The notes: generated by a model not told the origin, from the letters alone. A DNA stretch of 36,392 bases from an uncultured Candidatus Saccharibacteria bacterium (GCA_964360035.1 CAYHUJ010000003.1:1-36392); one strand, 5' to 3'; positions 11,047 to 21,388 are shown, numbered from the stretch's first letter. Numbers and translations: made by a program.

Positions 11047-11565
11047 TTATTTAAATAATCTTACCCGCGCCGGCCTGATGACGCGGCCGCGGAGAGAATA
11101 TCCTCTTTCTATTTCCTCCGCCACCGTCCCCGGCTCCCCCTCTCCGTCCGTTTCGGCGATCGCTTCATGAACGGCCGGATTGAATTTATCGCCGGGCAAA
11201 ACGGCTACGCGTTCAAGGCCCCGTTTTTTCAGCGCGTCTTCCAGTTGAGCGCGAATCATCAAAACGCCCCTATTCCGCTTTTCATCGCCGTCCGCCACCG
11301 CCAAACTCAAATCAAAACTGTCCAGCACGACGATCAATTCCCTCATCAGATCGTCATTCGCGAATTTGGCGATTTCTTCAAGTCGTTTCAGTTCGTCTTT
11401 TTTATAATTCAACAGGTCCGCCTTCGCCCGTTTCCAGCCGTCCAGATATTCGCCGCTCTGCTTCCGGCATTTTTCAAGCTCATCCGCCGCTTCGGCGGAT
11501 TTCCCTTCTCCTTCGCCTTGCGGCGAAGACGGCGCTCCCCCGTTTTTTTTATCGTCTTTTTCCAT
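11047..11565 (-). CDS. grpE: Nucleotide exchange factor GrpE
   Basis: RAKADLLNYKK, FNPAVHEAI, GYSLRGRVIRPARV. Confidence 0.96.
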   Translation of the reverse strand: MEKDDKKNGGAPSSPQGEGEGKSAEAADELEKCRKQSGEYLDGWKRAKADLLNYKKDELKRLEEIAKFANDDLMRELIVVLDSFDLSLAVADGDEKRNRGVLMIRAQLEDALKKRGLERVAVLPGDKFNPAVHEAIAETDGEGEPGTVAEEIERGYSLRGRVIRPARVRLFK

Positions 11566-12348: not shown

Positions 12349-14040
12349 TCAGTATGTTCTCGCCAGAATGTCCAAATCCCGCTTTTTCAAAAAGGCGAGG
12401 CGTTCAAAGTTGGCGTCCTCGGAAATAAACTGCGCCACCTGCTGGCCGCCGATAAAATGCGGCAAAATCACGTAGTCGGCGCCTTCTTCGTAAAGAAGCC
12501 GCGCCTCCCATTCTTCCATCGCCGTCATTATTATTTTCGGCCCGGCGGAAGCGGAGAAATGCCGCTTGACGCGGCTCAGAAGAAAAAGATTGTCGTTGAC
12601 GTCCGGAACCGTGGAGATGATAATCCGCGCGTCAAAAATATGGATGTCGTCCTGGATTTCCTCGTCGGCGATATCGCCATAGACGACGTAAAACCCCTCG
12701 CCCCCAAGCTTCTGGACGACATCGGGATTAAAATCAACGATTATCACCCCCTCTTTCGGCAAAACGGACAAAAGATGCTGACCGAGACGGTGGGCGCCGG
12801 CAAGAACGATATGCTCTTTCCAGCCCTTTTCCGTCAGCGCTTTTTCTTTCGGCTGTTTTTTTTCAAAAACCGACAAAAGCGGCGAAAGTAGAGAGTAAAG
12901 GCGGTCGCCGTAAATAATAAGGTACGTGGACCCCGTAATCGTAACGATACCCACGAGAGTGATAAGCGAAACTTCGCTCTCTCCGAAATGGCCGACGCCG
13001 CGGCCAAGCTGCATCAGCACGAAGCTGAATTCGGAAATTTGGGCCATGGTAATCCCCGACAAAAAACTCGTTCTTTTTTTATAGCCCAGAAGGCCCATTA
13101 AAATCATCACAATCAAAGGATTGCCGATAAGCACGAACAGGGAAAAAACGGCGACCGTCGGCCAAATTTCGGAAATGTCGCCCAGCGCGAGAGTTGAGCC
13201 GAGAACGATGAAGAAAACGATGATGAAAAAATCGCGCAGCGGCCTGATGCGCGAATGGATTTGAAAGTGCTCGGCGGAAAACGAAAGGGCGATGCCCGCC
13301 AAAAACCCGCCGATTTCCAGCGAAAGCCCGATCCAGGAAGAGGAAAAAAGATACGCTATACCCAGCGCCCAGGCGATGCTTAACAGAAACAAAAGTTCCT
13401 GCGATTTGGCGATTGTTTTTATCAAAGCGGGAATGACGTTTTTGCCCATAAAGAAAATCGCGGCAAAAAGAACCGCCCCCTTCAGGAAAACGAGAAGAAA
13501 ATCAAAAACGCCCGGGCTGTTTCCGGAAGCGCCGAAACCGGCCAGAAAAACCAGCGCGGCCAGAGCCAGAAGGTCCTGAATCAAAAGAACGCCGACCATC
13601 AGCCGCCCGTATAAGCTATGCAGGTCTTTTTTCTCGGAAAGCAGTTTGACGACGATGATGGTGCTGGAAAACGTCAGGGCAACGGCGATATAAACGGAGG
13701 CGATAACTGAAAAGCCGAGAAATTGAGCGAGAAGAAAGCCGATGACGGCCGTAAAGGCGACTTGCCCGAGACCGACAATAACCGCCGCTTTTCCGATATT
13801 CTTCAGGCCGGTAACGTTCATTTCAATGCCGACCAGAAATAAAAGCAGAGTGATGCCGATGCGCGACATTATTTCCAGCGTCTCCTTGCTGTCCAGCGCC
13901 AGATATCCGAGCGGACCGGCGATGACTCCGGTGAGAATGTAGGCCAAAATAGGCGGCTGTTTCAAAAACCGCCCGATAAGCGCGAATACGCCGGCAATCA
14001 TTAAAATAACGGCGATTTCAAAAAATCCTTTTTCAATCAT
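12349..14040 (-). CDS. CPA2/Kef-type cation:proton antiporter with C-terminal RCK (TrkA-N) domain
   Basis: Many TM helices; LLLFLVGIE, FSSTIIVVKLL, QISEFSF; C-terminal GAHRLG...VVYGD...GADYVI. Confidence 0.92.
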   Translation of the reverse strand: MIEKGFFEIAVILMIAGVFALIGRFLKQPPILAYILTGVIAGPLGYLALDSKETLEIMSRIGITLLLFLVGIEMNVTGLKNIGKAAVIVGLGQVAFTAVIGFLLAQFLGFSVIASVYIAVALTFSSTIIVVKLLSEKKDLHSLYGRLMVGVLLIQDLLALAALVFLAGFGASGNSPGVFDFLLVFLKGAVLFAAIFFMGKNVIPALIKTIAKSQELLFLLSIAWALGIAYLFSSSWIGLSLEIGGFLAGIALSFSAEHFQIHSRIRPLRDFFIIVFFIVLGSTLALGDISEIWPTVAVFSLFVLIGNPLIVMILMGLLGYKKRTSFLSGITMAQISEFSFVLMQLGRGVGHFGESEVSLITLVGIVTITGSTYLIIYGDRLYSLLSPLLSVFEKKQPKEKALTEKGWKEHIVLAGAHRLGQHLLSVLPKEGVIIVDFNPDVVQKLGGEGFYVVYGDIADEEIQDDIHIFDARIIISTVPDVNDNLFLLSRVKRHFSASAGPKIIMTAMEEWEARLLYEEGADYVILPHFIGGQQVAQFISEDANFERLAFLKKRDLDILARTY

Positions 14041-14097: not shown

Positions 14098-14616
14098 CTA
14101 CGGCGAAGCGGGAGCGGAATAATCAACGACGCATCCGCGGTCAAGAGAGTCAAAATCAACGATCAGGCGGATGACTTTGCCGTTTTTAATCTTCACTTTC
14201 GCGGTCGCCATCCAGTTAAAAACGCTCAATTCGCCTTCTTTACCGATGACGTGATCGGAAAACATCATCACCGCCCAAAGAAAGCCGGAAACATCGGAAA
14301 AGGCGCTTTCATCAACAGCCGTTTTGAACAGCCGCCTTTCCCACCGGCCGATTTTTTTGTAGAGGCCGTCGCGAAATTTCGCCACAAAGTCCTCGCGGTA
14401 ATTTCTTTCCAAATCAACCGCCGTCGGCATTGCGGGGATGGCGGAGAACCGTTCGGCTTTCCGGAAATCGTTTTCCACGAGAAGCGCGGTTAAAAACTCG
14501 GCGGCCGTCTTCTTGTCGTTATTTTCCGTTCCGGCGGCGTCGCTGTCGCCGGAAAAATAAAATGAGAAAACAAGAAAAACGGCGAGAAACGCAAACGCGA
14601 TTCGCGTTTTCGGCAT
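14098..14616 (-). CDS. Secreted hypothetical protein
   Basis: N-terminal signal-like hydrophobic segment; SD GAAGGAGG upstream. Confidence 0.7.
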   Translation of the reverse strand: MPKTRIAFAFLAVFLVFSFYFSGDSDAAGTENNDKKTAAEFLTALLVENDFRKAERFSAIPAMPTAVDLERNYREDFVAKFRDGLYKKIGRWERRLFKTAVDESAFSDVSGFLWAVMMFSDHVIGKEGELSVFNWMATAKVKIKNGKVIRLIVDFDSLDRGCVVDYSAPASP

Positions 14617-14618
14617 GG

Positions 14619-14924
14619 TCAGCCCTCCTTCGGAAAATTGTCAATGTAATACTGCGTGTCCGGCTTTTTCAAAAGGCCGTCCCGGAAAAGCCGCCATTTG
14701 ATGGCAAGGGGCGTTTCTCTCCGCGCCCGCTCAAAATGCTCTTCCGCTTCTTCCAAAAACATCGCCTCGGAGCGCGCGAGCCCCATTGTTTGCCATCTTT
14801 GCTTAAACAGCCCGCTCTGGCGATATGCCAGAAACGACTGCCGCGCCAGCCGCTCGTAATAAAACCGGAAATAAAACAGACAAAGAAAATCAATCAAACC
14901 GCCGCGTTTCGGAAAAGACGCCAT
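14619..14924 (-). CDS. Hypothetical protein
   Basis: ATG at 14924 preceded by AAGGAGG at 6 nt; 2-nt gap to the next gene. Confidence 0.55.
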   Translation of the reverse strand: MASFPKRGGLIDFLCLFYFRFYYERLARQSFLAYRQSGLFKQRWQTMGLARSEAMFLEEAEEHFERARRETPLAIKWRLFRDGLLKKPDTQYYIDNFPKEG

Positions 14925-15016
14925 TTTCCGCCTCCTTGAATTCTTAAGTGGCAAAGAACTTACTCAAATCAGAACACGAATCCGCCCCAAAAATCAATCC
15001 GGCGGGCGGCTTGACG

Positions 15017-15041
15017 AAATTAAATTCCGCGAGATTTAAAA
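15017..15041. repeat. 25-bp direct repeat, left flank of hicBA
   Basis: aaattaaattccgcgagatttaaaa, identical to 15573-15597. Confidence 0.92.
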
Positions 15042-15287
15042 TTATTCGCTATAAAAATGGGATTTCAATTCACTCTCGGGAATATACTTCGGGGCTTGAC
15101 GGTAGATAGCTTTAATCGTTCCCTTGTCTAATTCCGGATGGCCGGGAATGGTTAATGTCTGTTTCGCGCCGTCGGAAAGAATTCTGACTAATTTAATATG
15201 ACTGCCTTTCCGGGCAGCCACGGAAAAACCAAAGATAAAAAATATTTTTACCGCTTCTTGACCGGAAAAAATTTTAAGCTTTGGCAT
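15042..15287 (-). CDS. hicA: HicA family toxin (mRNA interferase)
   Basis: MPKLK...GF...RKGSHIKL...TIPGHPELDKGT. Confidence 0.88.
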   Translation of the reverse strand: MPKLKIFSGQEAVKIFFIFGFSVAARKGSHIKLVRILSDGAKQTLTIPGHPELDKGTIKAIYRQAPKYIPESELKSHFYSE

Positions 15288-15507
15288 GAACCAAGGAATC
15301 AACTTCGAAATTGGCTAAAACGGAGGGTTCAGCGGCTAAATCAAAATCTGACAAATTTTCTCCTTCTAATTGAAGGCTGATTGCTTCTTGAAGATTGCAA
15401 ACTAATTCATCGAGGGTTTTCCCCTGAGTAACAACGGGCAAATCCAAACACTCGGCAATATAGTATTTATCGCCTTTATAAATATGAACTTGGATAATTT
15501 TTTTCAT
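15274..15507 (-). CDS. hicB: HicB family antitoxin (short form, no obvious DNA-binding domain)
   Basis: YIAECLDLPVVTQGKTLDEL..NLQEAI.L.LE; overlaps hicA. Confidence 0.88.
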   Translation of the reverse strand: MKKIIQVHIYKGDKYYIAECLDLPVVTQGKTLDELVCNLQEAISLQLEGENLSDFDLAAEPSVLANFEVDSLVHAKA

Positions 15508-15516
15508 AGTAAATTT

Positions 15517-15546
15517 ATAGTATCACAATCAAAAAATCAAAGTCAA
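15517..15546 (-). promoter_or_regulatory. Promoter of hicBA
   Basis: TTGACT, 18 nt, TACTAT with extended TG; ATG 9 nt downstream. Confidence 0.6.
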
Positions 15547-15572
15547 ACGCGGGTAATTTTAATATCTTATCA

Positions 15573-15597
15573 AAATTAAATTCCGCGAGATTTAAAA
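15573..15597. repeat. 25-bp direct repeat, right flank of hicBA
   Basis: Identical to 15017-15041. Confidence 0.92.
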
Positions 15598-15641
15598 AGG
15601 CGCCGCTTCGTTGCGACGTCCTGTTTTTTTCGTCTTGATTT

Positions 15642-16010
15642 TCATCGGGCCTCAACCAGCGCCCGAAGAAAATTTTCAAACCGCTCCAGCGACGCAAACG
15701 GCTTTTGCAGCGCGGCGTCAACGCCGGCGGCAAACGCCCGCCTTTCCACCTCATCGCCGAGATCGGCGGTCATCATTACCACTTTAACCGCCGGAAAATG
15801 CGCCTTGACGAACCGCGCAACTTCAAATCCGTCGCGCTTGGGCATCTGGCGATCCGTCACCACCGCGTCCAGTTCGCCGGAGAGATTTTTGACAATTTCA
15901 ATCCCCTCCTCTCCATCGGCGGCAACCGTTACTTCGTGCCCGAAAGCCGCCAATCCGGCCGCCAGCATCGTTCTTAGACTTTGATGGTCTTCCACCACCA
16001 AAATTTTCAT
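15642..16010 (-). CDS. Single-domain response regulator (CheY-like receiver)
   Basis: ILVVED, VVTDRQMP..DG, MMTA, LQKP. Confidence 0.92.
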   Translation of the reverse strand: MKILVVEDHQSLRTMLAAGLAAFGHEVTVAADGEEGIEIVKNLSGELDAVVTDRQMPKRDGFEVARFVKAHFPAVKVVMMTADLGDEVERRAFAAGVDAALQKPFASLERFENFLRALVEAR

Positions 16011-16156
16011 CGTTGGCCCCCTTTCAAAAAATCAACGAAGAACTAAAGATTCTATTAATAAAGACAACCATGACCCAAATTACTTGTCAAATTCATGCCG
16101 CAAAAGTCAATTATGGATGTTAAGCTTCCATAGGGCTTAAAAGTCATCGTCGTCTT

Positions 16157-17611
16157 TTAACTGCCGAGGGGTATTGCCAAGAGGGTGCGTCTCCAGAAAG
16201 AGCTGGTTCCTCCGCCGCTAACTAAATATTTGAGCACGACAGTGTGACTGCCGGCGGAAAGATTTATAATCGCCACTCGAGAAACAACGCCTGTGCCAGC
16301 CTGCGACCAAATTTCGCCATACATAATATCCTTATTAACGCCATCAATGGATACTATTATTTGAGAATTGGCCCCACTAGTACCGTTGGATGCGGTAACT
16401 GAATAACTGATTAAAACATCTTGGGCTTTATTTAACGAAATAGATATGGTATCAGGGGTAGTTAATTGGGTCCATGTAGTAGAGGTGGTTGTTTCCTGTG
16501 TCCCTACGTCACTTTGCTGGCGATTCTTCATTTCCGTAACCAATAAACCGTTGGCATTAAGAGAGCCGTTGACATCCAGTTTACTCGCCGGCGCCGTCGT
16601 TCCGATGCCGACGTTGCTATTTGAAGAAAAGAAAAGCGTTGAAGTGGCAACTTGCGCGCCGGAAGAGTTAAAAGTAACGGCTTGACCTTCGGAACCGACT
16701 ACCATTGAAGCAATGGGGTTGCCGTTAAAATAAAGCGTGCCGCCTTGATTATAAAGAGCGTTGGCGGCGGCGCTCGGCGTGGTTGAAGCGAGAGTAATGG
16801 CGCCTTGCACGGCAAGACGGTTTGAAGGCGTCGTCGTTCCGATGCCGACGTTGCCGGAATTGGTATTGTAAATGTCGGTGCTACTCGCGTTCCAGCCGCC
16901 GAGAAGATTCCAGGAACCGTTACGATAACCGCGGAAAACGTTATCGGTCGTGTTGTAATAAATCGCGCCGTTTGATCCGGCGGGGTCGCTCGCGACAGAG
17001 CCGAGATAAAGAAGGTCTGACAAACGAAGAGTCGCCCAGCGAGGATTGGAGGCGCCGATGTTGAGCGTGCCGTCGGCGTTGGGAAGCAGATCGGTGTCAA
17101 AAGTGGCGGCGGAAACACGGGCGATAGCCGAACGAAGCGTCCGCGAAGCCATCTGCTGGGGATTTTCCGTATTGTAAGAAAGCGACAAATCAACCGTCAC
17201 GCTGTCATGCGCGCCGGGATTCTGATATTTGCGGAAAACGAGCCCGTCCACTTTCACCTGCGAGCTCGTCAAGGTCGTCGTGGCGCCGGCTCCCTGTTTC
17301 AAATAAACGGCGGCGGTGTCCGAAGAAATCAAAATTGGATCAAGGGCGGCGTCTTTCATCCGCAATTTTAAAACGGTTTCGCCGCTTCCCGCGGACATTT
17401 CAATCAAGCTGGATTCGCGTACCAGCCGCTGAATCGTCTGCATTACGAAATTCGCCTGCTGGGCCACCTCCGCCGAAGACGTCTCGCGGCTCTGAACTCT
17501 TAAAACGATGGTCAATATTCCAACGCCGGCACTCGCCACCACCGCGAAAATGGCGATGTAAACGATAAGCTCAACGAGCGAAAATCCTTTTTGCGATTTT
17601 TCTTTTTGCAT
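16157..17611 (-). CDS. Long type IV pilin-like protein with prepilin N-terminus, NVGIGT repeats and a distinct C-terminal domain
   Basis: KG|FSLVELIVYIAI class III signal; two NVGIGTT repeats; Ser/Thr/Gly/Asn-rich beta domains. Confidence 0.88.
   Translation of the reverse strand: MQKEKSQKGFSLVELIVYIAIFAVVASAGVGILTIVLRVQSRETSSAEVAQQANFVMQTIQRLVRESSLIEMSAGSGETVLKLRMKDAALDPILISSDTAAVYLKQGAGATTTLTSSQVKVDGLVFRKYQNPGAHDSVTVDLSLSYNTENPQQMASRTLRSAIARVSAATFDTDLLPNADGTLNIGASNPRWATLRLSDLLYLGSVASDPAGSNGAIYYNTTDNVFRGYRNGSWNLLGGWNASSTDIYNTNSGNVGIGTTTPSNRLAVQGAITLASTTPSAAANALYNQGGTLYFNGNPIASMVVGSEGQAVTFNSSGAQVATSTLFFSSNSNVGIGTTAPASKLDVNGSLNANGLLVTEMKNRQQSDVGTQETTTSTTWTQLTTPDTISISLNKAQDVLISYSVTASNGTSGANSQIIVSIDGVNKDIMYGEIWSQAGTGVVSRVAIINLSAGSHTVVLKYLVSGGGTSSFWRRTLLAIPLGS
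16595..16854. repeat. Two identical 23-bp repeats inside the pilin gene
   Basis: cgtcgttccgatgccgacgttgc at 16595-16617 and 16832-16854 (encodes NVGIGTT). Confidence 0.9.
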
Positions 17612-17624
17612 AATGCTGATTCGT

Positions 17625-17936
17625 TTATGGCCTTTTTCTTTCCAATGCTATTACGCGCTTTTCCAACGCTAAAAATTCGTCGCGGCTGACTTTTACTTTT
17701 AAATCGTTGCGAATAAGATGCAGCTCGTCAAAAACCATCTCAAATTTATAATTAATCTCGCTCCGAAATTCGCGAAATTCGCGATGATTTTCATCAATCT
17801 TCTTTTCCAGCGCTTGATGCCCTTCCGCCACCAGCCCCAATTTTGAATCAATGTCTTCTAAAACAACGCCGAATCGGCGGGGGAAAGCGCCCTCGGCCGT
17901 TTTTCCGTTTTTTGATTCTTTGCTCTTTCCGGCCAT
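17625..17936 (-). CDS. Small coiled-coil hypothetical protein, similar to 1488..1814
   Basis: RFGVVLEDIDS...LEKRVIALE versus RFTVVLEAIQS...LEERVKRLE. Confidence 0.75.
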   Translation of the reverse strand: MAGKSKESKNGKTAEGAFPRRFGVVLEDIDSKLGLVAEGHQALEKKIDENHREFREFRSEINYKFEMVFDELHLIRNDLKVKVSRDEFLALEKRVIALERKRP

Positions 17937-17978
17937 ATTAAATTCATCATATCAAAAACGCGGGAGGATCGCAATCTG

Positions 17979-18007
17979 TTCTTGCCTCGCCGGTGTGGAT
18001 AACTTAC
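17979..18007. repeat. 29-bp direct repeat containing a DnaA box, left flank of the RelE module
   Basis: ttcttgcctcgccggtgtggataacttac, identical to 18557-18585. Confidence 0.92.
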
Positions 18008-18058
18008 CGCAAGATTATTTTCAAAAAAATCCGAAACTTGACGGAGGCGGGAATCGTT

Positions 18059-18310
18059 TCAATCGTAAATTTCGCCTCGTTTGGCAACTTTGAGAATATA
18101 AATAGCGTTATTCTTAACATCAAAAATCAGCCGATAATCCCCGACCCGAAAACGGCGGTTGCCCTCTTGGTGATTTGTAAGATGTTTGGCGAATTTTAAA
18201 GGATTTTCCCGGCTTGCGTAAAAGCGCATTTTATCAACGATGCGTTTTTGGACCGAATGGGGCAAATTTTCCAATTGCTTGGCGGCTTTGCGGGTATAAA
18301 AAAACTTCAT
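18059..18310 (-). CDS. relE: RelE/ParE family toxin
   Basis: AAKQLENLPHSVQKRI...RRFRVGDYRLIF...ILKVAKRGEIY; TGATG coupling to the upstream gene. Confidence 0.88.
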   Translation of the reverse strand: MKFFYTRKAAKQLENLPHSVQKRIVDKMRFYASRENPLKFAKHLTNHQEGNRRFRVGDYRLIFDVKNNAIYILKVAKRGEIYD

Positions 18311-18504
18311 CAAAAGCCGAGTTTCTTAAACAGCGCCTCTTGGGAGATTATTTTCTTCCGATTTATTTCTTTTCTGGCCTCGCGAACGTCCATTAAATTT
18401 TCCACATACGACAAAAAAACCCCGAAGCGTTCGTCAAGTCTTTTCAGGCGGCGATATTCCGCTTTTGAAATGAAAATTTTATCCCTTGTCGCGATATTGG
18501 CCAT
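18310..18504 (-). CDS. Putative cognate antitoxin
   Basis: 64 aa, translationally coupled upstream of relE; ends ISQEALFKKLGF. Confidence 0.75.
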   Translation of the reverse strand: MANIATRDKIFISKAEYRRLKRLDERFGVFLSYVENLMDVREARKEINRKKIISQEALFKKLGF

Positions 18505-18512
18505 GATTGATC

Positions 18513-18540
18513 ATGTTATCAAAATAAAATCAAAAGTCAA
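18513..18540 (-). promoter_or_regulatory. Promoter of the antitoxin-relE pair
   Basis: TTGACT, 16 nt, TAACAT with extended TG; ATG 8 nt downstream. Confidence 0.6.
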
Positions 18541-18556
18541 AACGGTCAGTCTCCGT

Positions 18557-18588
18557 TTCTTGCCTCGCCGGTGTGGATAACTTACAAT
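18557..18588 (+). promoter_or_regulatory. Right 29-bp repeat copy forming a probable cysS-dnaB-recR promoter with a DnaA box in the spacer
   Basis: TTGCCT (18560-65), 17 nt, TACAAT (18583-88); TGTGGATAA at 18572-18580. Confidence 0.65.
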
Positions 18589-18620
18589 TGACGATAAACA
18601 AGCCGCCAAACGACGCCGTC

Positions 18621-20000
18621 ATGAAAATCTACAACACTTTAAGCGGAAAAAAAGAAGTCGTAAGGGCTTCCAAGCGGCCGCTCAAGTTTTTTGTCTGCGG
18701 CCCGACGGTTTACGATTATTCCCACATCGGCCACGCCCGAACCTACGTCGCTTTTGACATCGCCGTCCGCTGGCTTGAGTTTTCGGGCTTCAAAGTTTTC
18801 TATCTTCAAAACATCACCGACGTTGACGACAAAATAATCAACCGCGCCAAAAGTGAAAACAAGAATCCCCTCGCCCTCGCCCGCTTCTTTGAAAAAGAAT
18901 ACCTGAAAGACATGAAATCGCTCGGCGTCGTTTCCGTGGATAAATACGCCCGCGCCGCCGGCCACCTCAAAGAAATAAAAAGGCAAATCGCCGCTCTGCT
19001 GAAAAAAGGATTCGCCTACCGAACCAAAAGCGGCGTTTATTTTGAAGTAAAGAAATTCGGCGGATACGGCAAACTGTCGCGGCAGAATCTTGAAGAAACG
19101 CGGCGCGGCTGGCGGATAGAGCCCGATCCGGAGAAGAAAGACCGCTTGGATTTTGCCCTCTGGAAAAACCGGCAGGCCGGCGAATTGGCGTGGCCGTCGC
19201 CGTGGGGCGCGGGACGTCCCGGCTGGCACATTGAAGATACCGCCATCGCCGAAAAATTTTTCGGCCCGCAGTACGACATCCACGGCGGAGCGGTTGACCT
19301 GAAATTTCCCCATCACGAATCGGAAATCGCCCAGGCGGAAGCGGCGTCCGGAAAAAAGCCGTTCGTGAAAATTTGGATGCATACCGGCTTTCTCCTCGCC
19401 GGCGGCGAAAAAATGTCCAAAAGTTCGGGAAATTTCATCACTATCCGGGACTTTCTCAAGAACCGCGGCGCCGCGGCGTTAAGAATGCTGGTCGCCTCCC
19501 GCCATTACCGATCCCCTCTTGATTACGAAGAATCGCTTGCCGAAAACGCCGAAAATTCTCTGCGCACCATCGGGGAGTTTCTGGAAAAAACGGGGCTGGC
19601 GAAAAATCGCGGAATAAAAAAAGGAGCCGTAAAAAGCGGCGGCGAAAAGAAATTCGCCGAAGAATTCAAAAAAGCGATGGACGACGATTTCAACACCCCG
19701 AAAGCGCTGGCGGCCGTTTTTGATTTTATCGCTTCGCTTCAGAAAGATTTATGGACGCTTTCTCCCGCCGCCGCGAAAAAAGCCGGCGATTCCGTCCGAA
19801 AACAGCTCGCCATTCTCGGAATTGAAGTCAAAACGGCCGAAATTCCCCGGAAAATAAGGGCTTTGGCGGCAAAACGGGAAGAGTTGAGAAGAAATAAACA
19901 GTTTATCCCCGCCGACGACTTGAGAAAAAAACTGGAAGAGTTAGGATATGCCGTAGAGGACACCGCGGCCGGTCCGTATATTAAACCGCTTAAACGCTGA
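18621..20000 (+). CDS. cysS: Cysteine--tRNA ligase
   Basis: CGPTVY, HIGH, DFALWK, GRPGWHIE, FPHHE, KMSKS; ATG 18621 (MKIYNTL) is the typical start. Confidence 0.97.
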   Translation: MKIYNTLSGKKEVVRASKRPLKFFVCGPTVYDYSHIGHARTYVAFDIAVRWLEFSGFKVFYLQNITDVDDKIINRAKSENKNPLALARFFEKEYLKDMKSLGVVSVDKYARAAGHLKEIKRQIAALLKKGFAYRTKSGVYFEVKKFGGYGKLSRQNLEETRRGWRIEPDPEKKDRLDFALWKNRQAGELAWPSPWGAGRPGWHIEDTAIAEKFFGPQYDIHGGAVDLKFPHHESEIAQAEAASGKKPFVKIWMHTGFLLAGGEKMSKSSGNFITIRDFLKNRGAAALRMLVASRHYRSPLDYEESLAENAENSLRTIGEFLEKTGLAKNRGIKKGAVKSGGEKKFAEEFKKAMDDDFNTPKALAAVFDFIASLQKDLWTLSPAAAKKAGDSVRKQLAILGIEVKTAEIPRKIRALAAKREELRRNKQFIPADDLRKKLEELGYAVEDTAAGPYIKPLKR

Positions 20001-20044: not shown

Positions 20045-21388
20045 ATGATTAAAGCAAAACTTCCCCCGCAGGACATAGAAGCCGAACAGGCCGTCCTGGG
20101 AGCAATGATGGTTAATAAAAACTCCGTTATCAACGTGGCCGATTCTTTGACTCCGGAAGAATTTTACAAACCGGCCCATCAGAAAATTTACGAAACGATG
20201 CTGGAGCTTTTCAGCCGGCGCGAACCGATAGACATCGTCAGTTTGACTTCGGCCCTCAAAAAAAGAAAAGAGCTGGAAAAAATCGGCGGCTCCGCCTACC
20301 TGACCGAGCTGGCCAATGCCGTTCCCTCATCGTCCCACATTGAGCATTACGCCGGAATCGTCAAGGAAAAAAACATTCTGCGCGAGCTTATCGGCGCCTC
20401 TTCGGAAATAATCGAAAACGCGTTCGGCGGCTCTTCGGACATTGAAGACCTCCTGGACCACATTGAACAAAAGGTGTTCGCCATCACCAATCGCTCGCTA
20501 CCGCAGAAATTCATCGCCGTCAAAGACGAGCTGAAAGACGCCTACGAACGGATTGAGAAATTGCACAAGGGAGACGGCGCTCTGCGCGGCGTCACCACCG
20601 GATTTGACGGTCTTGACCACTACCTCTCCGGCTTTCAAAAATCGGATCTCGTCATTTTGGGCGCGCGGCCGTCGCTCGGGAAAACCGCCCTGGCGCTGGA
20701 CATCGCCCGCCACGCCGCCATCAAAGGAGGGGTTCCGGTCGGCATATTCTCACTGGAAATGTCGCGCGAACAGGTAATTGACCGCCTGATTTCGGCCGAG
20801 GCGCAGGTGCCTCTCTGGCGGCTGCGCACCGGACGGCTGCAGGATGAAATTGAATTTGAAATGATCCGCGAAGCGCTGGACCGCCTGTCGCGGACGCCGA
20901 TTTTCGTTGAAGACACCCCCTCGCCGAACATTCTTCAAATGCGGGCGATGGCGCGCCGCCTTCAGGCGGAACAAGGGCTGGGGCTTCTCATCGTTGATTA
21001 CCTTCAAATGATCCAGCCCCGAACGTCAAGCGATTCCGTCGTTCAGCAGATAACGGAAATTTCGCGGGGACTAAAATCGCTGGCCCGAGAGCTGAACATT
21101 CCCGTTTTGGCGCTTTCCCAGCTGTCCCGCGGCGTTGAGCAACGGGAAGTAAAAATCCCCCGCCTTTCCGATCTGCGCGAGTCCGGCTCCATAGAGCAGG
21201 ACGCCGACGTCGTGATGTTTATTTACCGGAAAGACCGCGAGTATTCCAGCGTCGCGCCGGAAGAACAAAACACGGCCGAACTAATCATCGCCAAACACCG
21301 CAACGGGCCGCTGGGCACCGTCAAATTGAAGTTTGATCCCGAAAAGGTGAATTTCAAGCAGATTGACACGACTTATTCAATCCAATAA
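20045..21388 (+). CDS. dnaB: Replicative DNA helicase DnaB
   Basis: PPQDIEAEQAVLG, ARPSLGKT, VDYLQ, SQLSR, LRESGSIEQDAD, KHRNGP. Confidence 0.98.
   Translation: MIKAKLPPQDIEAEQAVLGAMMVNKNSVINVADSLTPEEFYKPAHQKIYETMLELFSRREPIDIVSLTSALKKRKELEKIGGSAYLTELANAVPSSSHIEHYAGIVKEKNILRELIGASSEIIENAFGGSSDIEDLLDHIEQKVFAITNRSLPQKFIAVKDELKDAYERIEKLHKGDGALRGVTTGFDGLDHYLSGFQKSDLVILGARPSLGKTALALDIARHAAIKGGVPVGIFSLEMSREQVIDRLISAEAQVPLWRLRTGRLQDEIEFEMIREALDRLSRTPIFVEDTPSPNILQMRAMARRLQAEQGLGLLIVDYLQMIQPRTSSDSVVQQITEISRGLKSLARELNIPVLALSQLSRGVEQREVKIPRLSDLRESGSIEQDADVVMFIYRKDREYSSVAPEEQNTAELIIAKHRNGPLGTVKLKFDPEKVNFKQIDTTYSIQ

Follow-up and report, generated by a model that had tools for sequence, protein, structure and literature searches.

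Insertion of a TA Cassette Upstream of cysS

How does a small toxin-antitoxin (TA) cassette that carries no mobility gene become inserted into the promoter region of a host gene, and where do the direct repeats on its two sides come from? This question is raised by a locus of an uncultured, ultra-small Candidatus Saccharibacteria bacterium of groundwater (genome G000; 690,295 bases in 50 contigs), for which we analysed the whole of contig C3 (36,392 nt), referred to in the following as the window. An exact 29-mer (TTCTTGCCTCGCCGGTGTGGATAACTTAC) is present on the plus strand at positions 17979–18007 and 18557–18585, with a start-to-start distance of 578 bp. Two matches were found in the window when up to three mismatches were allowed, and two matches were obtained in 0 of 100 shuffles. 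Across the complete genome the 29-mer gave two forward matches and no reverse match, and the control pattern gave none. The identity of the two copies ends sharply, since the 12 nt on their 5′ side and the 10 nt on their 3′ side are unrelated.

The copies enclose an insert of 549 bp (18008–18556), a complete foreign TA transcription unit on the minus strand that is absent from the related genome G001. Its GC content is 0.41, compared to 0.52 in the flanks. ORF and family searches revealed no mobility gene within the insert, the only ORFs being the two TA genes. Together with the next three bases (AAT) the right copy forms an intact promoter of cysS, TTGCCT-17-TACAAT (18560–18588, plus strand), which was found by the promoter scan and is followed 33 nt downstream by the ATG of cysS (18621–20000, plus strand; cysteinyl-tRNA ligase, PF01406, E 7.8e-112), the essential host gene targeted at its promoter. 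The left copy retains the −35 element TTGCCT and is followed by CGC; its −10 element is thereby broken (TACCGC), and it is absent from the promoter-scan list. These results agree with the first-pass annotation, which had described an exact 29-bp repeat around an antitoxin-relE cassette, a right copy that continues into the likely cysS promoter and a left copy that breaks off within the −10 element; we can add that the repeat is unique in the genome.

To the left, the insertion site is bordered by a host gene for a 103-aa protein (17625–17936, minus strand) that is conserved in G001. The other genes of the window have housekeeping functions: M48 peptidase, LemA, GroEL/ES, RmuC, DnaJ, DnaK, GrpE, HrcA and a cation antiporter, and further DnaB, RecR, Mur ligase, PBP, MraW, MraZ, ribosomal proteins and EF-Ts. 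No transposase was found by family searches of the window genes.

The Inserted Unit Encodes a Predicted Type II TA Pair

The distal gene of the insert (18059–18313, minus strand) codes for an 84-aa toxin of the ParE/RelE superfamily, which matches PF05016 (ParE_toxin, E 1e-9) with 39.3 bits at a cut-off of 23 and with 38.1 bits in a six-frame search. The protein has no NCBIfam match, and it shares 55–70% identity with 10 homologues. The putative antitoxin gene (64 aa; 18310–18504, minus strand) overlaps the toxin start by 4 nt. Neither Pfam nor NCBIfam contained a match to its product at E 0.01, and the gene is conserved directly upstream of the toxin gene in 12 of 15 loci. Judged from sequence, the pair is a predicted type II TA system of the RelE/ParE superfamily. 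It is transcribed from a promoter of its own, for which the promoter scan listed TTGACT-16-TAACAT with an upstream TG (18513–18540, minus strand), and this promoter contains a motif, TTGACTTTTGATTTT, that is common to homologous cassettes. The distribution of the cassette is patchy: among 401 genomes that were sampled from the order (251 genera), 14 genomes in 12 genera have the putative antitoxin. Retro-insertion of a transcript was rejected as an origin, because the −35 and −10 elements of the cassette lie inside the insert (in the window and in genomes G021 and G101).

Empty Sites Contain a Single Copy of the Repeat

The genus is represented by one other genome, G001 (85% complete). Its matches to the window cover the left flank of the insertion at 17633–17879 (75% identity) and then the sequence from 18556 on (81%), homology setting in again exactly at the right copy. 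Between these two matches there are about 149 bp in G001 versus 677 bp in the window. The corresponding site, on contig C25 of G001, reads TTTCTTGCCTCGCCCGTGTGGATAACTTACAATGGACG, is followed by cysS, and harbours no cassette. The single copy of the repeat is identical to the window's 29-mer at 28 of 29 positions, has the same −35 and −10 elements and is located directly before cysS. Homology to G001 is found in the DNA to the left of the window's left copy and is lacking to the left of the right copy, from which the order host, repeat, insert, repeat, host follows. The 29-nt repeat is thus duplicated host promoter DNA, as the first-pass annotation had proposed, and the related genome retains the empty site with a single copy.

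A second pair of filled and empty sites leads to the same picture. In G101 a homologous cassette is inserted between two copies (31/33 identical) of the 33 nt with which a membrane-protein gene begins, start codon included. On contig C99, a genome of the same genus, G056, has the same upstream DNA; there the gene continues beyond one copy of the 33-mer, and ~64 bp take the place of the 750 in G101. Both clean empty sites that were found therefore hold a single copy. G056 possesses its own copy of the cassette at another place, without a repeat. The repeat in G111 belongs to the coding sequence at the 3′ end of a tsaD-like gene.

For two further repeat-flanked cassettes of G000, on contigs C5 and C7, no syntenic DNA was found in G001, and for locus L063 and the G111 locus the flanks were not conserved in the relatives searched. 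Locus L057 was rejected as a clean empty site: its flanking genes are adjacent in relatives and separated by ~1.95 kb in that genome, and the region is a composite hot spot. Within this 1.95-kb insertion hot spot, which also holds a TA cassette, there is a ~95-nt repeat (L057 1608–1705; G403:C19), and copies of it with 79–98% identity are scattered over five or more other contigs of the same genome.

Support for the Junctions from Independent Assemblies

The junctions of the insert were compared to contigs from other studies. Contig X10 (another study) spans 17618–18378 and crosses the left repeat, X11 (a third study) spans 18098–18661 and crosses the right repeat, and X14 (a fourth study) covers the right junction from 18492 to 18627; none of them shows a difference to the window. 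Contig X3, possibly from the source sample, spans 15477–19200. Because contigs of other studies bridge each junction unchanged, the structure at 17979–18585 is not an artefact of one assembly. Among the contigs of four runs covering 14500–19200, no joint skipping from 17979 to 18557 and no circular form was seen; as contigs drop rare variants, this absence of an empty or circular form says little about the population. Metagenome scans gave no match with the repeat pattern, and 15 stretches, none homologous to the window, with an 18-mer.

The G000 assembly does contain artefacts. On contigs C4, C8, C10, C12, C16 and C29 there are seven exact 55-nt repeats with a spacing of exactly 155 nt, and a gap of 100 N lies between the members of at least one pair (on C8). 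These are scaffolding artefacts that stem from unmerged, overlapping contig ends. An assembly or binning error, with the cassette misjoined to the cysS promoter through a short word common to both, could draw on this precedent, but the independent contigs from three other studies cross the left or right junction without difference, and an equal structure occurs in many unrelated assemblies. We give such an error hardly any credence.

Further Repeat-Flanked Cassettes in the Same Genome

A hicBA cassette with its own repeat (15010–15597, minus strand; hicA 15042–15302, hicB 15274–15507) is a neighbour of the relE-type cassette. Its repeat copies at 15010–15041 and 15566–15597 are 32 nt long, 29/32 identical (91%), and share an exact core of 25 nt; in line with the first-pass annotation, this repeat and the 29-nt repeat are unrelated. 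At the corresponding place G001 has a different hicB-type cassette between conserved neighbours. The earlier proposal of two cassettes that each lie within a duplication and lack a mobility gene stands in part. It is borne out for the relE-type cassette, the repeat of which derives from the host; for the hicBA cassette the repeat itself was confirmed, and its host origin is not demonstrable, given the different cassette in G001. In Neisseria, minimal mobile elements or allelic cassettes at hot spots are exchanged by means of flanking homology. Such an exchange fits the hicBA site with its different cassette in G001. However, it needs no target duplication and leaves the 29-nt repeat of the cysS promoter unexplained.

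The region around the hicBA cassette (14938–16826) is a variable hot spot. G001 has there a different, 74-aa hicB-type gene and a truncated hicA, lacks the response regulator (window 15642–16010), and encodes a pilin-like protein with a different C-terminal part. Part of the gene for the 484-aa N-methyl (pilin-like) protein, at 16541–17011, is covered by metagenome contigs with a summed depth of up to ~1300 and many joints; it contains a repeated GIGTT-type motif (23-nt repeat at 16595/16832) that many organisms have in common.

G000 was scanned for exact repeats of at least 16 nt with a spacing of 100–3000 bp. The repeats fell into several classes: the two cassettes of the window, two further cassettes, REP-type palindromes, repeats within paralogous genes and the scaffolding artefacts. 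As REP palindromes form a separate class in G000, an action of REP/RAYT was rejected.

The first of the two further cassettes, a third TA cassette of this genome, is located on C5 (11373–12304; locus L036, ~1074–2005) directly after a NUDIX gene, between exact 23-nt repeats (TTTATCCGCCTTCGCGGAAGACC) that start at 11373 and 12282. It encodes an MntA-like nucleotidyltransferase (NF047752, E 1.5e-12, below cut-off) and HepT (PF01934, E 2.4e-31). On the left, its inner end forms a perfect hairpin, which occurs twice on contig C2 of G001 and is therefore a REP-like element. The other one, on C7 (20410–21120; locus L037, ~1011–1721), has repeats of 23 nt, or 27 nt with one indel, that start at 20410 and 21098, and contains a single gene for a 98-aa cysteine-rich protein without a family match, with its own promoter-like site and hairpins.

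Four six-frame family searches (ParE/RelE, HicA, HepT and PIN; other TA families are outside this count) identified seven toxin loci in G000, three of ParE/RelE, three of HicA, one of HepT and none of PIN. Exact flanking repeats of 23–29 nt are present at three of the seven; the remaining four have scores of 11 or less. A TA cluster on C4 (13000–16500) comprises a ParE/RelE pair at ~13045–13541 and a hicBA pair at 15960–16437 and adjoins a degenerate IS481-like transposase fragment (14213–14422; rve match below cut-off). No flanking repeats were found in this cluster.

The genome-wide search for mobility enzymes in G000, which covered PF00665 and PF00589 only, resulted in one tyrosine recombinase (C7:18745–19266) and one sub-threshold rve fragment on C4. 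A trans-acting enzyme may be responsible for cassette movement, and two forms of such action were considered, the first one with the tyrosine recombinase as catalyst. It would integrate a circular cassette, with the repeat as att core, comparable to cis-mobilisable elements and islands at tRNA genes. Recombination at att would be expected to leave a direct repeat around the insert and one copy at the empty site, and the recombinase gene of G000 is ~1.1 kb from the repeat-flanked cassette on C7. Nevertheless, the four repeat-flanked cassettes of this one genome carry unrelated repeats of 23–32 nt, in which no common motif is visible by inspection, and homologous cassettes elsewhere have other, host-derived repeats that correspond to a promoter, a gene start or a gene 3′ end. 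Since the repeats differ and are host sequence, attP would need to be re-invented for each site. In addition, an integrase is missing both within the insert and next to it, and we consider an att-type integration highly improbable. Integron cassettes and cis-mobilisable elements with TA genes resemble the cassettes described here in being small, movable TA units, promoter-bearing or promoter-less, with a patchy distribution. They differ from them in that here no attC-like or common core was seen, no integrase is nearby, and the repeat is local host DNA.

Flanking Repeats Recur Around Related Cassettes

In order to compare loci, we used a flank-repeat score, for which the left and right flanks were matched directly and without gaps and the highest-scoring stretch was taken (+1 per match, −2 per mismatch). 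An order-level scan of 15 loci revealed flanking repeats in the window (29/29), in G101 (31/33), G033 (21/21) and G111 (21/23), and an AT-rich one in G021 (17/17); the scores of shuffled controls were 9–14. Six further intact loci had no repeat, one locus was ended by a contig end, and three join the antitoxin to another partner.

A toxin alignment over GTDB species genomes provided a cross-phylum set of 79 loci, of which three were dropped because a contig end was too close. Scores of at least 14 were reached by 17 of the remaining 76 loci of the window's toxin family and scores of at least 17 by 14 of them. In the controls (n = 245; intervals of matching length in the same loci, at an offset of 1300 or 1900 bp) the corresponding numbers were 4 and 2. 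Flanking repeats are thus enriched at TA loci (17/76 versus 4/245 at a score of at least 14), and of the two outcomes that the first-pass annotation had named as refuting its reading, a lack of such enrichment and empty sites devoid of the single copy, neither was found. The other 59 toxin-family loci score below 14, and four of the seven TA loci of G000 are without a flanking repeat; either decay of the scar or other insertion routes account for such loci. The titles of the repeat-positive records name CPR groups, Gammaproteobacteria (78/82 nt), Deltaproteobacteria (51/56), Chloroflexi and a Methanophagales archaeon. Flanking repeats at this toxin family are hence not specific to CPR bacteria.

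Among the HicA loci of the order, 4 of 26 had a score of at least 25, and none of 49 controls reached 17. Two of the four high-scoring loci are clean (73/76 and 25/25) and two are tandem hicBA arrays. In these arrays, L205 (G007:C74) and L208 (G062:C64), related hicBA cassettes follow each other, and the repeated stretches of 64–149 nt include the promoter and the hicB start. Our data demonstrate that flanking repeats recur around TA cassettes.

We tabulated 18 repeat-flanked inserts, leaving out one duplicate record and two weak cases (scores 14 and 15). The inserts have lengths of 477–855 bp, and in 13 of the 18 the GC content is lower than in the flanks. Their repeats are 17–82 nt long, 86–100% identical, and differ in sequence and length from site to site; in comparison to other cassettes they gave only matches of 12–15 nt. 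Among 11 cassette-bearing loci, pairwise similarity is limited to the TA pair (roughly 400–485 nt), and no flank is held in common. In G101 and G120, two genomes of one genus, the cassettes are 91% identical and lie in different contexts.

A different repeat was thus observed at every site, and neither element ends nor mobility genes were found. No terminal inverted repeats above control level were detected in 21 inserts (scores 1–6, equal to controls). The cassette ends vary as well, with 19–93 nt before the antitoxin gene and 15–89 nt after the toxin gene, and in G101 ~80 nt beyond the region common to G120 were carried along. A DNA transposon or MITE was rejected as the source of the inserts on the grounds that terminal inverted repeats are lacking and the duplications, at 17–82 nt, are not of fixed length. 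Integration by a ruler mechanism, as in CRISPR or casposon systems, was rejected since the lengths vary.

The second form of action in trans is that of a transposase which moves a non-autonomous element and cuts the target with a long and variable stagger, as is reported for some insertion sequences of Mycoplasma and mycobacteria. IS1634 and IS1549 are insertion sequences with long, variable target duplications. Such duplications are in print also for Mycoplasma IS1630 (PMC2853133), which is similar to our cassettes in its flanking direct repeats of tens of bases and variable length; elements of this type encode a transposase and have defined inverted ends, and the cassettes have neither. The degenerate rve-type fragment beside the TA cluster on C4 speaks for this reading. 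Yet this fragment, the sole rve match in G000, does not reach the family cut-off, the window contains no transposase, the cassette ends differ between homologues, and the 21 inserts lack terminal inverted repeats above control. It is very unlikely that a transposase of this kind was at work.

The locus in G033 deserves separate consideration. Here (L027, G033:C44, 410–1420) a relE-type cassette is found directly upstream of a hicBA pair, and the 21-nt repeat lies in the promoter of this adjacent pair and contains the promoter motif of the cassette family. The motif, TTGACTTCTGATTTT, hardly differs from the promoter of the window's cassette and also resembles the hicBA promoter of the window; possibly it represents a promoter or operator that CPR TA cassettes have in common. 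Recombination between similar promoters accounts for the G033 repeat no less well than target duplication does. As it consists of the cassette-shared promoter motif TTGACTT(C/T)TGATTTT, it hints that a short homology is able to guide one of the junctions.

Recombination of this sort is also part of another possible history of the cysS site, in which a circle carrying the 29-mer from the same site of a sister strain enters by Campbell-type homologous recombination with the single chromosomal copy, so that the repeat would stem from spread inside the lineage rather than from the primary event. Excision from repeat to repeat would yield such a circle, and the G033 repeat, a promoter motif common to relE cassettes and the adjacent hicBA pair, looks as if similar promoters had recombined. 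On the other hand, with 17–29 nt the repeats offer little length for RecA-dependent recombination, the contigs of the four runs included neither a circular nor an empty form, and the origin of the first duplication is merely displaced. We judge this history to be unlikely.

Relation to Restriction-Modification Units with Long Target Duplications

The first-pass annotation had called the way of insertion undescribed. This part of its claim does not hold, as a comparable process is in print for restriction-modification (RM) systems. Furuta, Abe and Kobayashi 2010 (PMC2853133) describe RM units that were inserted with a long target duplication and without a mobility gene. Their account reports empty sites in related genomes, repeats that often span the start or stop of a neighbour, and an enrichment of direct repeats around 4132 RM systems. 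It calls the mechanism unknown and suggests a property common to RM systems, e.g., double-strand breakage. The account is repeated in the review by Mruk and Kobayashi 2013 (PMC3874152), which gives the repeats as of the "order of 100 bp". The screens in PMC2853133 applied repeat cut-offs of >20 or >30 bp, and with 29/29 nt the repeat of the window is above the former and just below the latter. The insertion mode is therefore already known for RM systems, and the TA cargo is the extension. Beyond these two publications, Nobusato et al. 2000 (Gene 259:99) is said to be the founding paper on RM units that insert with a long duplication of the target.

As far as the class is described in these sources, the likeness comprises a small unit without mobility gene, direct repeats that far exceed ordinary target duplications, a related genome with a single-copy empty site, repeats that vary in length and sequence and often extend across the start, stop or regulatory boundary of a neighbour, and a cargo of the addiction type. 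Because the repeat spans such a boundary, the neighbouring gene survives. The differences are that the cargo is a type II TA pair in the window and a type VII TA pair elsewhere in G000, that the repeats are 17–82 nt long in contrast to the "order of 100 bp" in PMC3874152, and that the hosts include CPR bacteria. RM cargo is a property of all the cases that have been described and not of the insertion process.

Full-text literature searches, with subscription papers outside their coverage, returned no report of TA cassettes with such duplications. In a Mycoplasma study (PMC8562856), flanking direct repeats at one TA region are called "scars of previous recombination" in the passage that mentions them.

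A Proposed Course of the Insertion

Taken together, we regard it as probable that a foreign TA unit was inserted at cysS with a 29-bp target duplication and belongs to the class of insertions with long target duplication. A self-contained type II TA unit, consisting of its own promoter, the small antitoxin gene, the ParE/RelE-family toxin gene and a weak terminator-like tail, entered the cysS promoter, and 29 bp of the target were duplicated in the process. As the right copy and the three following bases keep the complete TTGCCT-17-TACAAT promoter, cysS would stay expressed; the left copy is a truncated leftover.

Tentatively, we suggest that host repair or replication, rather than an enzyme of the cassette, makes the duplication. 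The cassette would then be a passive DNA fragment with arbitrary ends and no transposon. The duplication could arise when a break with widely staggered ends is filled in by the host, or when synthesis switches template, leaving the host strand to copy foreign DNA and re-entering it 29 nt upstream. TA and RM modules would be over-represented among the surviving insertions because addiction or defence selects for their retention, and in compact genomes those duplications would survive that preserve the promoter, start or stop of the neighbour. Afterwards, deletion from one repeat to the other could remove the cassette cleanly.

The toxins of the cassette families (type II and type VII, by family assignment) are not known to cleave DNA. 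This argues against DNA breakage made by the cargo, as suggested for RM systems in PMC2853133. Since the RM phenomenon extends to such cargo, a process of the host is indicated and not one of the cargo.

Implications for TA Modules in Reduced Genomes

TA modules are called mobile, and the movement of a chromosomal TA module without a carrier element has seldom been shown at base resolution. The locus at cysS offers an exact scar and an existing empty site, together with recurrence around one toxin family in several phyla. The repeats predict that the insertion can be cleanly reversed, and the mechanism of insertion can be tested in a laboratory strain. It is conceivable, though we would not call it probable, that a general, enzyme-free pathway exists by which host replication or repair captures arbitrary fragments and duplicates 17–100 bp of the target, and that it provides addiction-type modules (TA and RM) of bacteria and archaea with their main route of colonisation and of clean exit. 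If so, a nuclease of the cargo would be unnecessary, contrary to the sole hypothesis in print. For the reduced genomes considered here, duplication of a neighbour's promoter, start or stop would explain how modules of this kind can be inserted harmlessly into tiny intergenic spaces.
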